From the sequence record PP213477.1: a stretch of DNA of 47,926 bases. One strand, given 5' to 3'. How positions within the stretch are numbered: position 1 is the stretch's first letter; the number at the start of each line of letters is the position of its first letter. Shown piece by piece: positions 6,441-44,635 of this stretch. The position numbers and the translations under genes are program-made. This DNA is from Escherichia phage vB_Eco_ZCEC08. Below the pieces are notes generated by a model. It searched no databases and was not told the DNA's origin. It saw only the letters and a program-made list of their open reading frames with translations.

Positions 6441-6477
6441 ATGTAGATACTATGCACCACCACTCAATCTACGTCAA
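6441..6477 (-). promoter_or_regulatory. candidate minus-strand promoter (TTGACG ... TAGTAT) with inverted ATCTAC motifs
   Basis: reverse complement reads TTGACGTAGATTGAGTGGTGGTGCATAGTATCTACAT. Confidence 0.35.
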
Positions 6478-6521: not shown

Positions 6522-6800
6522 ATGAAACTATCGCAACGAGGCGTGGAGACGTTTGGAATTACCGATGCCGTGGATATATCGCCTTACATCACTACCGAGA
6601 CAACGCAGAATCAGTTCGACGCGCTGGCAAGTCTTGCCACCGACATTGGCATTTACGCGTTCCGTAAATCAACGCTTCTGAAGAAGCACAACCTCCGCTG
6701 CTTCTCATGTGCTGTTGCGCATTTCATCGCGTGGGGCGAGAAGACTGGCGACAAAGCAAAACGCAAAGCTGAAAAAGAGGTTTACTGGTATGGCTATTAG
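6522..6800 (+). CDS. hypothetical protein (92 aa) upstream of endolysin
   Basis: ORF track; GGAGG upstream; not hydrophobic enough to call a holin. Confidence 0.45.
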   Translation: MKLSQRGVETFGITDAVDISPYITTETTQNQFDALASLATDIGIYAFRKSTLLKKHNLRCFSCAVAHFIAWGEKTGDKAKRKAEKEVYWYGY

Positions 6801-7254
6801 TAAAAACATGAAGGCGTTTCTGGATATGCTGGCGTACAGCGAGGGCACTGATAACGGGCGGCAGAAAACCAATAATCATGGTTATGATGTGATTGTTGGC
6901 GGCTCACTGTTTACCGACTATTCCGACCACCCGCGCAAGCTGATTAGCCTGCCAAGGCTGGGCATTAAATCCACCGCCGCCGGTCGCTATCAGGTACTGG
7001 CTAAGTTTTATGATGCGTACAAAAAGCAATTGCGTTTACCGGACTTCTCCCCCGCATCGCAGGACGCCATTGCAATGCAGCTAATCCGTGAATGCAAGGC
7101 CACCGCTGATATTGAGGCTGGTCGCATTGCTGATGCCATCCATAAATGCCGCTCCCGCTGGGCCTCATTGCCGGGCGCTGGGTATGGTCAGCATGAGCAG
7201 AAGCTGGATAAGCTGATTCGGGTATACAAAGAGGCTGGCGGAGCTGTGGCATGA
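6790..7254 (+). CDS. R: endolysin, lambda R-like lytic transglycosylase
   Basis: MAISKNMKAFLDMLAYSEGTDNGRQKTNNHGYDVIVGG...WASLPGAGYGQ matches the lambda R sequence as recalled from memory. Confidence 0.85.
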   Translation: MAISKNMKAFLDMLAYSEGTDNGRQKTNNHGYDVIVGGSLFTDYSDHPRKLISLPRLGIKSTAAGRYQVLAKFYDAYKKQLRLPDFSPASQDAIAMQLIRECKATADIEAGRIADAIHKCRSRWASLPGAGYGQHEQKLDKLIRVYKEAGGAVA

Positions 7255-7481
7255 AAAAGCTAAGCAACTGGCTGCTCGCCGCGTGGATTTCATTCTGCTC
7301 GCTGTTACAACTATGGCCTGATGCAATGATGCATGTGTGGGTAATGATGCCGGATGACCTGAAAGCAGCGCTACCGCCAATCGTGGTCAAAGGTGTGAGT
7401 TACTCCATCATGCTTGTCGGCATCCTCGGCAAAATGCACGGCATGAGGAAGGAAAACCGGAGGCTGCGCGATGGTGAGTGA
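7251..7481 (+). CDS. putative holin (two hydrophobic segments)
   Basis: 76 aa; hydrophobic stretches WLLAAWISFCSLLQLW and VSYSIMLVGILG, charged C-terminus; ATGA overlap with endolysin stop. Confidence 0.4.
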   Translation: MKKLSNWLLAAWISFCSLLQLWPDAMMHVWVMMPDDLKAALPPIVVKGVSYSIMLVGILGKMHGMRKENRRLRDGE

Positions 7482-7621
7482 GCAAAGAGATGTATTGGTG
7501 CTGGAATGGGTGCGCATAACCAGCAAGGAAGACAATATTGAGTCGGCGTGGCGCGCACTTAAAAATCGCTCACAATTGGTGCAGTTTGCAACTCGTCGGT
7601 GTTTTATATGGAGGTTGCGCA

Positions 7622-8113
7622 ATGATGTCGATTCTCGCTAAATACTGGCGACTGCTGGCAATTATTATAATTGTTGCTGCCTGCGCGCTATGGATTCGCG
7701 GAGAGGTTATAGACTACGGCGACCAGCGATACGCAGAAGGCAAAGCTCAAGCCATCGCAGACCAGAAGGCTGCAGACAAAAAAGAGGAGCAACGACGCAA
7801 TGCAGAACTGCAAAAGATTCAGTCCGACGCACAGCAAAGGATTGATGCTGCGCGCAATGATGCTGTTAATGCTGCTGCTAAGTCTGGCAGGTTGCAGCAA
7901 CAACTCACCAGTATCCGCAAGCAGCTCGTCGGATATTCCACCGCTGAGTCCATTGGCAACCCAGCCGCAGAAACCGGAGTTTTGCTTGCAGACGTGCTCC
8001 GCAAATCTGTCGAAAGAAATCAACAGCTGGCAGATTACGCTGACAGGGCGAGAGAGGCAGGATTGACGTGTGAGGCACAGTATAATTCTCTGCGTAATAA
8101 AAAAGCCCCGTGA
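7622..8113 (+). CDS. Rz: i-spanin (Rz-like)
   Basis: start at MMSILAKYWRLLAIIIIVAACALW (N-terminal TM segment) after GGAGG; coiled-coil periplasmic part; contains embedded Rz1 frame. Confidence 0.65.
   Translation: MMSILAKYWRLLAIIIIVAACALWIRGEVIDYGDQRYAEGKAQAIADQKAADKKEEQRRNAELQKIQSDAQQRIDAARNDAVNAAAKSGRLQQQLTSIRKQLVGYSTAESIGNPAAETGVLLADVLRKSVERNQQLADYADRAREAGLTCEAQYNSLRNKKAP
7845..8066 (+). CDS. Rz1: o-spanin (Rz1-like lipoprotein) embedded in Rz
   Basis: signal peptide MLRAMMLLMLLLSLAGC with lipobox LAGC; proline-rich mature region; lies wholly inside Rz in another frame. Confidence 0.65.
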   Translation: MLRAMMLLMLLLSLAGCSNNSPVSASSSSDIPPLSPLATQPQKPEFCLQTCSANLSKEINSWQITLTGRERQD

Positions 8114-9808: not shown

Positions 9809-9853
9809 CTTGACGTTTCTACATCATTTAGTCAATACTTGTTGACGTAGATT
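9809..9853. promoter_or_regulatory. divergent regulatory region with inverted TCTACATCA / TGACGTAGA motifs
   Basis: CTTGACGTTTCTACATCATTTAGTCAATACTTGTTGACGTAGATTG between divergent genes. Confidence 0.3.
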
Positions 9854-20139: not shown

Positions 20140-20200
20140 TTTCTACGTCACTAACTATAAACGCCACATCAATCTACGTCAACAGGAATATGCTAAAATC
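20140..20200. promoter_or_regulatory. divergent promoter region with two direct TCTACGTCA motifs and an extended -10 (TGCTAAAAT)
   Basis: GTTTCTACGTCA and TCAATCTACGTCAA about 32 bp apart; TGnTAAAAT upstream of the plus-strand genes. Confidence 0.35.
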
Positions 20201-20229
20201 ATGCTAATCAAACAACAGGAGATTTAAAC

Positions 20230-20349
20230 ATGGGTTCAACCAACTCACCATCTCGTTCGCGCGCTACTGGCAACACAAAAACTGGCGGCAAAACTGGCGT
20301 GGTGAAGCCAAACGGCTCTACCCGTTCACCATCGCGCGGTAAAAAATAA
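20230..20349 (+). CDS. small basic Ser/Thr/Gly-rich peptide (39 aa)
   Basis: hand-translated MGSTNSPSRSRATGNTKTGGKTGVVKPNGSTRSPSRGKK; RBS-like AACAGGAG upstream. Confidence 0.3.
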   Translation: MGSTNSPSRSRATGNTKTGGKTGVVKPNGSTRSPSRGKK

Positions 20350-20789
20350 TGTTCGGCGCAGATGTTGCCATCATGATCATGTATGTGCTTGGATTTGCCT
20401 GCACGGGCATGGTTGCGTTTCTGGTGTTCATTCCGGCAATGGTGATGTCTGTGTATCTTGGATGGGTGCTTGTTGATTCATTTCCCGCCGAATATCTGTA
20501 TTACCTTGCGCAGTGTATGGTCTGGTTGTTTCCGGCTATTGCGCTGCGTAAAAGTACAAAGATGGCGCTCTGCGTGCTGACGATGAGCCTTTACGAATGG
20601 CTGGTTGCGATAGAGTCATTCGTATGGGAATTTATCACGCCTGTAGAAACGCCGCTTCATGCGCAGTACGCATTTATTATTATCGGCATCCATCTGTTCA
20701 TCCTTTCCATCACTTTTAAATGGGGCGGCGAAATTGGACATTATTCTTGGCGTGGTTGCCATCGTTTTTTCGCTGATTCAAATCTATAA
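20349..20789 (+). CDS. polytopic membrane protein (146 aa)
   Basis: several hydrophobic segments; ATG overlaps upstream stop (TAATG). Confidence 0.5.
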   Translation: MFGADVAIMIMYVLGFACTGMVAFLVFIPAMVMSVYLGWVLVDSFPAEYLYYLAQCMVWLFPAIALRKSTKMALCVLTMSLYEWLVAIESFVWEFITPVETPLHAQYAFIIIGIHLFILSITFKWGGEIGHYSWRGCHRFFADSNL

Positions 20790-20821
20790 GTGCTGGAAAC
20801 ATATTATCAGCGAGACTCGCA

Positions 20822-21106
20822 ATGAACGAAACACTAAGACAGGCCGCAGAGCAAGTTATAAGCGGGACGACGGGGCAGGTGATTGACAAGGCTGGATATG
20901 CCTCCATTGGTACTGGTATTGGACTGAAAGTTGCAGAGCAAACGCCTGTCACGCAGTCTTATTTTGAGGCTATGATTCCACACAGTCTGACAGAGTGGGC
21001 GGCAGTAGCGTCAATCCTCGGCGCCCTGTCTCTGGTAATAAAGAACCTCTTTGAAATGTGGTGGAAGGTACGGGAGTCAAAAAAAAATGGCAGCACCAAC
21101 ACCTGA
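20822..21106 (+). CDS. hypothetical protein with C-terminal hydrophobic segment
   Basis: ORF track; WAAVASILGALSLVIKNLF. Confidence 0.4.
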   Translation: MNETLRQAAEQVISGTTGQVIDKAGYASIGTGIGLKVAEQTPVTQSYFEAMIPHSLTEWAAVASILGALSLVIKNLFEMWWKVRESKKNGSTNT

Positions 21107-21479
21107 AGAATTAGTAAGCCAGATGGCATCCCGTGGGATAACTATCACCACGACGGATGCGTCCGGTATTCTGTGCCTTGTGGCGTCAATCAGTGAATGC
21201 CTTGAGCTGAACTATCCAAACGATGAATGCCGACAAAATGCGATCATGTTGTGGGCTTCCATCCTGATTAGCGCAAATACTGCTGGTCGCTACGTTACCA
21301 GCCAAAGCGCACCATCTGGAGCATCACAATCATTCGCGTATGGCAGTAAGCCGTGGGTGGCGCTGTACAATCAGATGAAACTACTGGATACAGCAGGATG
21401 CACTGGCGATTTAGTGGAAGACCCGGACGGCGGCGGCAAGCCGTGGTTTGCGGTTGTGCGTGGGAGTAAATGCAAATGA
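21087..21479 (+). CDS. putative head-tail connector protein
   Basis: position upstream of head-tail joining and tail genes; start moved to MAAPTPEEL (residue 13). Confidence 0.4.
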   Translation: MAAPTPEELVSQMASRGITITTTDASGILCLVASISECLELNYPNDECRQNAIMLWASILISANTAGRYVTSQSAPSGASQSFAYGSKPWVALYNQMKLLDTAGCTGDLVEDPDGGGKPWFAVVRGSKCK

Positions 21480-22617: not shown

Positions 22618-22694
22618 TGGTGGACACGGACGGATTTGAACCTTCAATCAGCCGATTATTAGTCGGTTGCTTTAACCAATTAAGCTACGCGTCC
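22618..22694 (-). tRNA. tRNA-like gene, isotype undetermined (hand fold gives anticodon AAU)
   Basis: minus strand reads GGACGCG-TA-GCTT-AATTGGTTA-AAGC-A-ACCGA-CTAATAA-TCGGC-TGATT-GAAGG-TTCAAAT-CCGTC-CGTGTCC-ACCA: 7-bp acceptor stem (one G.U), 4-bp D stem, T-loop TTCAAAT, encoded CCA; one mismatch each in anticodon and T stems. Confidence 0.5.
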
Positions 22695-40416: not shown

Positions 40417-40446
40417 TTGATGTTTCTACGTCAGTTAGCTTATACT
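40417..40446 (+). promoter_or_regulatory. sigma70-like promoter (TTGATG - 18 nt - TATACT) with TCTAC motifs
   Basis: hexamers read directly; about 30 nt upstream of primase ATG. Confidence 0.4.
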
Positions 40447-44013: not shown

Positions 44014-44635
44014 AGATAAAAAATAAAATTAACGCAACACAAAACAGGTCTAACCAGCAACAATAGCTACCACACTTAATAACTGGTCAGACCACCATCC
44101 CGTATCTGATATATGTGGATGGCGCCTGTCGTTCAATTTGAACTCGATTTTTACCTAATTTACCGTATATTTATCGGTCGGTTTTTTGCATAAATAATTG
44201 ATTTATAGTATTTTACCTGTTTTACCGTAACTCTAAGGAGTATTTTCATCATTAAGAGTGGTAGTATATTAATTGGTCTAATTTTAAAGAAATCTAATAA
44301 AATCAATATATTAATATAAAAGAATAGCTTACTTACTTCTATAGTATTTACCTGGTAAAACCGGTAACTCCTCCGAAGGCCGCGTCATTACTGGATTCAT
44401 TTTTACCGCCTGTAGGTAAATACAGTAGTTTTCAATCCGTTATTGCTCTTCTAAGCTGTTGATTACCGGTACTTTATTTGGGAAACCGGCATTTACCGGT
44501 TTTTGTGGTGTGATTAATAATCGAGCAACTGGTCCTGTTTCACCAGAACCAACTAATGCGACGCCTGAAAATCATGTTGACGTAGAATCATCATTGATGT
44601 AGATTGAACTAATCGAAACAAACGAGGGTGAAGAG
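44014..44635. repeat. AT-rich non-coding region with iteron-like TTTACC(G) repeats and ACCGGT palindromes; candidate origin
   Basis: direct TTTACC copies near 44148, 44159, 44211, 44221, 44347, 44401; inverted copy near 44415; ACCGGT near 44360, 44465, 44495; no ORF of 60 aa or more. Confidence 0.35.
44577..44605 (+). promoter_or_regulatory. sigma70-like promoter TTGACG-17-TAGATT
   Basis: hexamers read directly; about 30 nt upstream of the ATG at 44636. Confidence 0.45.

Follow-up and report, generated by a model that had tools for sequence, protein, structure and literature searches.

The DNA analyzed here, a 47,926-nt stretch from Escherichia phage vB_Eco_ZCEC08 (PP213477.1; hereafter the window, at its full length), contains at positions 20230-21106 a compact cassette of small genes at the head of the head-tail joining genes. 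An original prediction made from the sequence had recognized three open reading frames (ORFs) in this region, and all of them were recovered on the plus strand: p39 (20230-20349), p146 (20349-20789) and p94 (20822-21106), named after the lengths of their products in amino acids (aa). We identified one additional gene, designated sTM (20734-20886, plus strand), which was missed by this prediction and is unannotated in every record examined. It lies in another frame and overprints the 3' end of p146 as well as the 5' end of p94. The genes overlap in order: p39 and p146 share one base, sTM starts within p146, p94 starts within sTM, and the gene for an adaptor-like protein starts within p94. The window belongs to a Skatevirus-type siphophage; it shares 99% DNA identity with Escherichia phage HC6 and 87-97% with many Skatevirus-group siphophages of Salmonella, Escherichia and Shigella, while remoter relatives have Klebsiella and Aeromonas (Roufvirus) as hosts.

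The first gene, p39 (PHROG 34767), encodes the basic, Ser/Thr/Gly-rich peptide that had been described for it, with nine basic and no acidic residues and a net charge of +9. A Shine-Dalgarno sequence, AGGAG, is located at 20217-20221, 8 nt upstream of the start, and the stop codon overlaps the p146 start as TAATG, which suggests coupled translation of the two genes. Length variants of 31, 32, 35, 39 and 44 aa were found among relatives. Their indels were exclusively in-frame, and both the C-terminal motif VKPNGSxRSPSRGKK and the strong Shine-Dalgarno sequence were conserved across the variants.

The second product, p146 (PHROG 14688), is a polytopic protein predicted to reside in the inner membrane. 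Several hydrophobic segments had been noted in it, and hydropathy together with AlphaFold2 resolved these into four to five membrane helices. The AlphaFold2 model contains five helices (predicted local distance difference test score, pLDDT, 76; predicted template modeling score, pTM, 0.69) and a disordered stretch at residues 130-146, and a fold search of this model against PDB returned no match (best E-value 0.58). Two motifs are conserved in the family, YEWLVAxESFxWQFITPVETPLH and KWGGEIG. The protein has been labeled a lipoprotein, a label that can be traced to a match to the PROSITE lipobox pattern PS00013 in the Vi II-E1 record. We rejected this assignment. In homologs, F, L, V, I or T takes the place of Cys18, and no basic residues precede it. 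Being polytopic and lacking a conserved cysteine, p146 is mislabeled. Two terminator-like matches inside p146 (at 20659 and 20748) were also discarded, as such matches were no more frequent than in shuffled sequences.

The overprinted gene sTM starts with TTG and encodes 50 aa, beginning with (M)DIILGVVAIVFSLIQIYKCWKHIISETRNERN..., with one predicted membrane helix. Across the natural loci examined, this start is invariably 88 nt 5' of the p94 ATG, and GGCGGCGAAATTGGA is conserved in it across clades. The nucleotides that encode the KWGGEIG motif of p146 probably also provide the ribosome-binding site and start of sTM. In Klebsiella phage VLCpiS13b, which lacks p39 and p146, a 42-aa unannotated ORF overlapping, and lying just 5' of, the p94 homolog is the counterpart of sTM. 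No sTM family was found in PHROGs, and among 5.8 billion protein clusters it had been called as a gene in one.

The last gene of the cassette, p94 (PHROG 13738), encodes a 94-aa protein with a single hydrophobic segment, as had been reported from the sequence. Hydropathy and AlphaFold2 place a membrane helix at residues ~55-79; the hydrophobic peak spans 55-77 and the confident helix of the model spans 55-89, although the model as a whole is poor (pLDDT 64). An N-terminal Gly-rich motif, GQxIDKAGYxSIGTGxG, is followed by a helix motif, TEWAAxxSIxGAxSLxxKN (residues ~57-79), and by a basic C-terminal tail, KVRESKKNGSTNT.

To evaluate the coding status of these ORFs, ratios of nonsynonymous to synonymous polymorphism (pN/pS) were calculated from ~30 distinct sequences retrieved from 80 IMG/VR loci and GenBank relatives. 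The ratios in the proposed frames of the four ORFs were 0.04-0.18, whereas p39, the core of p146 and p94 gave values of ~1-7 in the other two frames. For p39 the ratio was 0.12 in its own frame versus 2.8-3.4 in the others, and for p94 it was 0.08 in the Skate clade and 0.04 in the Klebsiella clade. The core of p146 gave 0.16, whereas its codons 129-146, which overlap sTM, gave 1.34, and its last 16 residues are unconstrained. In this overlap the constraint is in the sTM frame (0.18; 0.13-0.18 for sTM where it overlaps p146) and not in that of p146, which is consistent with the disordered and variable p146 tail. In the overlap between sTM and p94 the constraint is on p94 (0.17), and the sTM tail is free to vary. 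Within the Klebsiella clade alone, sequences had diverged too little (pS 0.03) for the sTM ratio to be informative. The frames are thus conserved across related phages, with frame-specific purifying selection and intact ORFs in all natural loci, and this pattern of substitution shows all four ORFs to be genuine protein-coding genes.

The distribution of the four genes divided the cassette into two parts. In 46 loci p39, p146, sTM and p94 were all present together with the adaptor gene, and in 40 loci of the Klebsiella/Aeromonas type sTM and p94 alone accompanied the adaptor gene. Among the loci collected, p39 and p146 were always jointly present or jointly absent. On the other hand, sTM and p94 were present in every natural relative with a readable region. 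Among phage records, 204 matched p94 (201 of them at full length) and 102 matched p146; the difference of 52 Salmonella records between the two consists of records without a stated host, namely the seszw series described below. A distant metagenomic clade possesses all four genes (65% identity for p94, 47-50% for p146), and for this reason loss of p39-p146 in the Klebsiella clade is likelier than gain elsewhere. The close family of p94 is narrow, with at least 63% identity and all members in phage sequences of ~46-49 kb. A profile search of 1.8 billion representative proteins, however, extended it to 26 proteins, including relatives at 23-45% identity. The original prediction that an accessory insertion might be present here therefore holds for p39 and p146, which are jointly absent from the Klebsiella/Aeromonas Roufvirus-type clade and deleted in ~52 viable mutants, but not for p94, given its presence in 201 of 204 records at full length and its relatives down to 23% identity. 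These results show that sTM and p94 form an ancient conserved core and p39 and p146 an accessory pair.

Genome reduction offered independent information on dispensability. CRISPR-based reduction of Skatevirus seszw has produced ~70 deposited mutant genomes; the main text of the paper (PMC9825161) does not mention the cassette genes. All of these mutants kept p94, once only as an in-frame C-terminal fusion. The designed deletion in seszw_80S removed p146 together with the start and membrane helix of sTM, and the mutant was viable. In seszw_180S, also viable, a deletion created an in-frame junction between codon 28 of p39 and codon 30 of p94; p146 and sTM are lost from this phage, as is the best-conserved N-terminal motif of p94, whose helix and tail are retained. 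Both deletions imply that the C-terminal part of p39, p146, sTM and residues 1-29 of p94 are dispensable for plaque formation on the laboratory host. In the literature we found neither virion proteomics for this phage group nor functional work on the cassette genes.

One deposited genome differed from this pattern. Salmonella phage PHA46_2 (PP216514.2; locus L091, 1157-1771), deposited as a complete genome, has a 43-aa internal deletion in p146. Of its p94 only the first 25 residues are intact; beyond them translation would continue, in the wrong frame, into a remnant of the adaptor gene, the larger part of which is gone. This record may be a defective or mixed assembly, or a natural phage without both genes, and we judged it unreliable as evidence.

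Comparison with protein families revealed a weak similarity of p94 to holins. When all four cassette proteins were scanned against Pfam, NCBIfam and PADLOC, nothing was found beyond a sub-threshold match of p94 to Phage_holin_2_1 (E-value 0.074; 13.5 bits against a cut-off of 26), and PHROGs provided family numbers for p39, p146 and p94 but no functions. More signal was obtained from the p94 family. Six of 22 members matched Phage_holin_2_1 (phage 21 S; best E-value 1e-3), two each matched Phage_holin_2_3 (HP1) and Phage_holin_2_2 (T7), four matched PHROG 20 ('holin'), and three further holin PHROGs were matched by one member each. The match of one relative, P0126, to PHROG 20 (1.4e-6) extended over most of its length. 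With hhalign, the p94-family profile aligned to T7 holin gp17.5 with an E-value of 3.9e-4 and a probability of 35%, in an alignment that covered the SLxEW motif, helix and basic tail. This profile, when used as a control, had no similarity to the DUF7940 holin candidate encoded elsewhere in the window. Taken together, these matches are suggestive of a remote kinship of p94 with class II holins.

The overall plan of p94 also resembles that of class II holins such as T7 gp17.5 and phage 21 S, which are small and have a Gly/Ala/Ser/Thr-rich, weakly hydrophobic first segment and, after it, a single strong membrane helix that is entered through a '[ST]x[DE]W' motif and precedes a basic tail in the cytoplasm. 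The small size (~60-120 aa in this class), the membrane helix and the highly charged basic C-terminal tail are all present in p94. Adjacency to lysis genes, another feature of this class, is absent in the window, where p94 is located 13 kb from the endolysin and spanin genes, and was observed in 3-4 of the 12 remote relatives whose contexts were read. Unlike class II holins, p94 extends further at the N-terminus, where it has an invariant motif of its own (GQxIDKAGYxSIGTGxG), and is always paired with an overprinted single-pass peptide; to our knowledge, no such partner peptide has been reported for the T7 or phage 21 holins. In the phage 21 pinholin the first transmembrane domain is dispensable, which parallels the dispensable N-terminal 29 residues of p94.

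The remote relatives share a common plan, xIDKxGxxSIGxGxG, a linker, [ST]x[DE]WAAxxSIxG...KN in the membrane helix and a basic tail, and their genomic contexts (given here by locus number) were diverse. In L092, L093, L098/L099 and L108 the p94-like gene overlaps the start of a DUF7370 gene in the capsid-to-tail module, as in the window. In L096, L100/L101 and L107 it directly follows an endolysin gene and a holin candidate, and in L103 it is located 3 kb after a lysozyme and a three-transmembrane (3TM) holin. It lies just 5' of terminase genes in L094, in a structural module of another kind in L106, and as a lone gene (P0136) amid early-gene blocks in L102; the context in L097 was uninformative.

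In spite of this diversity, much of the layout of the cassette recurred in the 11 contexts inspected (all but L097). An sTM-like single-helix ORF, ATG-started in these relatives, overlaps the start of the p94-like gene in 10 of the 11, the exception being L102, where it is weaker. This ORF is overprinted on the 3' end of a polytopic gene in L096, L100, L103, L106, L107 and L108, with called product lengths of 122-165 aa (the 122-aa gene of L107 probably starts further 5'). A small peptide ORF that abuts or overlaps the start of the polytopic gene was observed in L103 (strongly basic product), L100 (Arg/Gly-rich) and L108 (mildly acidic overall, with the p39-like ending ...STGSPGRG). The four-part layout is therefore found in L108, L103 and L100, more loosely in L096 and L107, and its last three parts in L106.

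The polytopic partners are not all related. The L108 protein is a true p146 homolog (99% probability, 33% identity), whereas those of L096, L100 and L103 have no detectable similarity to the p146 family and are positional analogs. A second polytopic family of ~150-165 aa, represented by L096 2398-2880, L100 1545-2042, L103 5552-5998 and L107 3623-4222, occupies the position of p146 in these distant phages; it has the motifs xWSNxAMxGLxDxxFLWxIS and PKGLLNGIN and no PHROG or Pfam family. The L106 protein, also a positional analog for which no homology to the p146 family was found, may represent a third family. The recurrence of this layout with p94 across distant phages implies that it is ancient or has been repeatedly reassembled, and that it behaves as one unit. 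The overprinted sTM gene and this undescribed conserved layout, in a holin-like membrane cassette, are new here.

A complete lysis cassette, distinct from the p39-p94 cassette, is present elsewhere in the window at 6.5-8.1 kb (6522-8113, plus strand). Its first ORF (6522-6800, 92 aa) matches positions 55-114 of the 125 of Pfam Phage_lysozyme (E-value 1.9e-10), that is, the C-terminal half only, overlaps the start of the endolysin gene and is annotated as endolysin in Bas79; it looks like the remnant of a displaced T4-type lysozyme gene. The endolysin itself (6790-7254, plus strand) has no Pfam match and no N-terminal membrane anchor, and was judged lambda-R-like from its sequence. It is followed on the same strand by a class II holin candidate of 76 aa (7251-7481), a DUF7940 protein with two helices and a charged tail, which is named 'class II holin' in the Skate GenBank record, and by an i-spanin (DUF2514, ~7598-8113) with an embedded lipoprotein o-spanin (7800-8066).

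It is probable that the p39-p94 cassette helps to control when the infected cell opens. Our tentative interpretation, to which we would assign a probability of about 0.42, is that p39, p146, sTM and p94 form an auxiliary lysis-timing module of the holin/antiholin type. This interpretation is based on the weak holin matches, on the endolysin and holin neighbors in L096, L100, L107 and L103, and on the recurrent layout. In such a module, p94 would be a divergent class II holin-type protein that accumulates in the inner membrane, Gly-rich and weakly hydrophobic in its first segment, with one strong helix and a cytoplasmic basic tail. The sTM peptide, whose very short N-terminus is predicted to be periplasmic and whose basic tail is predicted to be cytoplasmic, would bind p94 in the membrane together with p146, and this binding would set when, or whether, p94 oligomerizes. 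The p39 peptide would act as a basic cytoplasmic cofactor. The cassette would then work side by side with the holin-endolysin-spanin cassette at 6.5-8.1 kb to tune membrane permeabilization and the time of lysis, and would not be a part of the virion.

Membrane proteins had been considered unexpected among virion assembly genes, an expectation that does not agree with known phages. In P2, the nearest precedent for such an organization, the holin Y, the endolysin K and lysA/B/C are flanked by the adaptor gene L on one side and by the tail-completion genes R and S on the other, a position similar to that of the membrane genes here, and the T7 holin gene lies between tail fiber and terminase genes, also amid virion and packaging genes. 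The P2 holin (~93 aa) and the polytopic LysA (~141 aa) are similar to p94 and p146 in size, membrane character and dispensability. The P2 lysA record reads 'nonessential; affects timing of lysis', and p146, likewise polytopic, ~140 aa in length and dispensable for plaques, may by analogy have a comparable role; the conserved yet dispensable putative regulators of the cassette resemble lysA in this respect. However, homology was not detected by hhalign between the p94 profile and Y (4% probability), between the p146 profile and LysA (0.2%), or between the second polytopic family and LysA (0.3%). In addition, the cassette differs from the P2 arrangement in having no endolysin or spanin inside it and the polytopic gene first, and P2 has neither an overprinted peptide nor a basic leader peptide. 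T4 lysis inhibition, which involves the holin T, the antiholin RI and the cytoplasmic cofactor RIII, also combines, in the control of holin triggering, several parts, including small cytoplasmic and membrane proteins, that are dispensable in the laboratory yet conserved. Unlike the cassette, the T4 genes are scattered, RI acts via a periplasmic domain that has no counterpart here, and no sequence relationship exists.

Several observations weigh against a lysis-timing module. Every holin-family match is below the curated threshold, and membrane helices are known to yield matches with a compositional bias. A holin role for p94 is not needed, given that the lysis cassette at 6.5-8.1 kb is complete and includes a class II holin candidate. 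The retention of p94 in all of the ~70 reduced mutants is odd for a mere timing regulator. In all four of the relatives closest to the lineage, p94 adjoins DUF7370 and not lysis genes. Finally, the p146 fold resembles nothing characterized: besides the negative PDB search, BFVD yielded uncharacterized phage membrane proteins only.

A broader and more speculative view, which we regard as unlikely, is that the layout represents a widespread and unrecognized self-contained membrane device with at least two (perhaps three) unrelated polytopic partners, which is not a classical holin/antiholin pair and possibly acts as a gated channel or sensor through which the lysis decision is coupled to the completion of virion assembly or to the energy state of the cell. 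If true, this would explain why the cassette is sited at the head of a connector operon in some phages and at the tail of a lysis cassette in others.

It is also rather unlikely that the cassette serves superinfection exclusion or another form of host-membrane takeover, blocking DNA entry of later phages or altering membrane potential or transport. Small inner-membrane proteins inside a structural operon that are partly dispensable in the laboratory would suit such a role, and HK97 gp15 and T4 Imm/Sp are examples of small inner-membrane exclusion proteins that are dispensable for growth and encoded in or beside structural genes. The PHROG category of p94 is 'moron, auxiliary metabolic gene and host takeover', and the lone gene of L102 (P0136) is moron-like. 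However, an injection or exclusion function, which the original prediction had suggested, received no specific support: the four proteins had zero PADLOC matches at E-values up to 0.1 and matched no named exclusion family in Pfam, PHROGs or NCBIfam, and the sole family-level signal is that of holins. Relatives also have, near their tail genes, a separate gene that is annotated for superinfection immunity. A patchy distribution is usual for exclusion genes, whereas the sTM-p94 core is ancient and universal in the lineage and p94 was never fully lost in the reduced mutants. Moreover, exclusion would leave both the holin-family signal and the endolysin adjacency in other phages unexplained.

A role in assembly, to which we give a somewhat smaller chance, would make p94, perhaps with sTM, a membrane-anchored factor or minor virion component that, together with the DUF7370 adaptor, helps to complete heads or to join them to tails; in a variant of this view, the hydrophobic helix of p94 could be buried in an oligomer instead of the membrane. 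The overlap of p94-like genes with the DUF7370 start persists down to 26-37% identity (L092, L093, L098 and L108), every deposited reduced genome retains p94, and the natural-looking seszw_180S deletion kept its C-terminal 65 residues in frame. On the other hand, an in-frame junction arises with a one-in-three chance anyway, the adjacency in DUF6260-capsid phages may be inherited gene order, and other relatives have no DUF7370 neighbor and lie beside lysis or terminase genes. A location in the membrane agrees with the hydrophobic helix and basic tail of p94 and with its membrane-protein partners, and the literature search noted above found no virion proteomics for this phage group. Least likely, and in our view improbable, is that p94 is the principal or a co-essential holin, with the DUF7940 protein as its partner or antiholin in a two-component system: both are retained in all listed reduced seszw genomes, and p94 is closer, albeit weakly, to characterized holin families, whereas DUF7940 is a family of unknown function, but the DUF7940 gene occupies the classical position between endolysin and spanins, encodes two helices and a charged tail and bears the class II holin label in Skate, and some remote p94 relatives lie beside loci with another holin candidate, GTA_holin_3TM.

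At present, the three annotated genes are labeled 'lipoprotein', 'membrane protein' or 'hypothetical' in ~200 phage genomes, several of them phage-therapy candidates. Recognition of these genes as one cassette corrects the propagated misannotation of p146 and adds a hidden overprinted gene under clear selection. As a lysis-timing module, the cassette would be a candidate for accessory control of lysis in virulent siphophages. If it works with the canonical holin, it would represent a new architecture of holin regulation; if it acts otherwise, it would represent a widespread phage membrane system.

The region upstream of p39 was proposed to contain a divergent promoter at about 20140-20200, and this appears plausible. 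A consensus scan detected a leftward sigma-70-type promoter, TTGACG-17-TATAGT, at 20154-20182 on the minus strand (10 of 12 matches), which is putative as a consensus match and would serve the EaC/ParB/methylase/RusA gene block. A candidate rightward extended -10 element, TGcTAAAAT, could be read at 20191-20199 on the plus strand, ~30 nt 5' of the p39 start, and TGnTAAAAT occurs in the same position in the Klebsiella relative VLCpiS13b.

The same intergenic region has two exact copies of a nonamer, TCTACGTCA, at 20142-20150 and 20173-20181 (plus strand). The reverse complement of the nonamer gives the -35 hexamer TTGACG, and the second copy includes that of the leftward promoter, on the minus strand. 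Six exact copies were found in the window versus 0.2 expected; the others are located at 6468-6476, 9843-9851 (minus strand), 40425-40433 and 44578-44586 (minus strand). According to the gene map, each of the six is located where gene blocks diverge, either between the blocks or at the start of one, and the intergenic region with the nonamer is conserved in phage VLCpiS13b. At both 6468 and 20173 the nonamer is followed, after 12-13 nt, by an extended -10 element (TGnTAnAAT) in the opposite direction; at 6468 this element is TGaTAGAAT, 5' of the lysis cassette, with a geometry equal to that at 20173. These sites look like a phage-specific back-to-back promoter or operator design common to the lysis cassette and the p39-p94 cassette, and the arrangement hints at a promoter type shared by this cassette and the lysis genes. 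However, the nonamer is also present 5' of replication genes, and it does not by itself prove lysis-specific co-regulation.

In annotated relatives, the gene order runs from the capsid genes through the leftward genes for RusA, methylase, ParB and EaC to the rightward p39-p146-sTM-p94 region, followed by genes for the adaptor-like, HK97 gp10-like, tail terminator and major tail proteins. The 3' neighbor of p94 in the window (21087-21479, plus strand) encodes a DUF7370 protein (Pfam E-value 4.5e-36), named 'head to tail adaptor' in one record (OQ469755). Its ATG lies 20 nt inside the 3' end of p94, and further head-tail and tail-completion genes follow. In the viable 37.9-kb mutant seszw_180S, this gene has a 2-bp deletion early in its sequence (L009 1528-1957, corresponding to window positions ~21087-21479). 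The product annotated there is the C-terminal part only (237 nt), and an ORF of 100 aa could begin at a GTG. Some 30 N-terminal residues of the supposedly essential DUF7370 protein may therefore be dispensable, or translation may restart.

Further downstream, in the space that separates the tail terminator gene from the major tail gene, ARAGORN called a tRNA with anticodon AAT (Ile) at 22618-22694 on the minus strand. At this spot relatives have either an HNH endonuclease gene or tRNA genes, one or two in number (Arg, Met or Ser), and such differences in gene content point to a variable insertion site. A p146 sequence with 99.3% identity was also found in the 45.7-kb genome of Acinetobacter phage vB_AbaM_AB4P2 (OR544125.1), a myovirus by name, which suggests that this record is a Skatevirus-type genome with a mislabeled host or morphotype.

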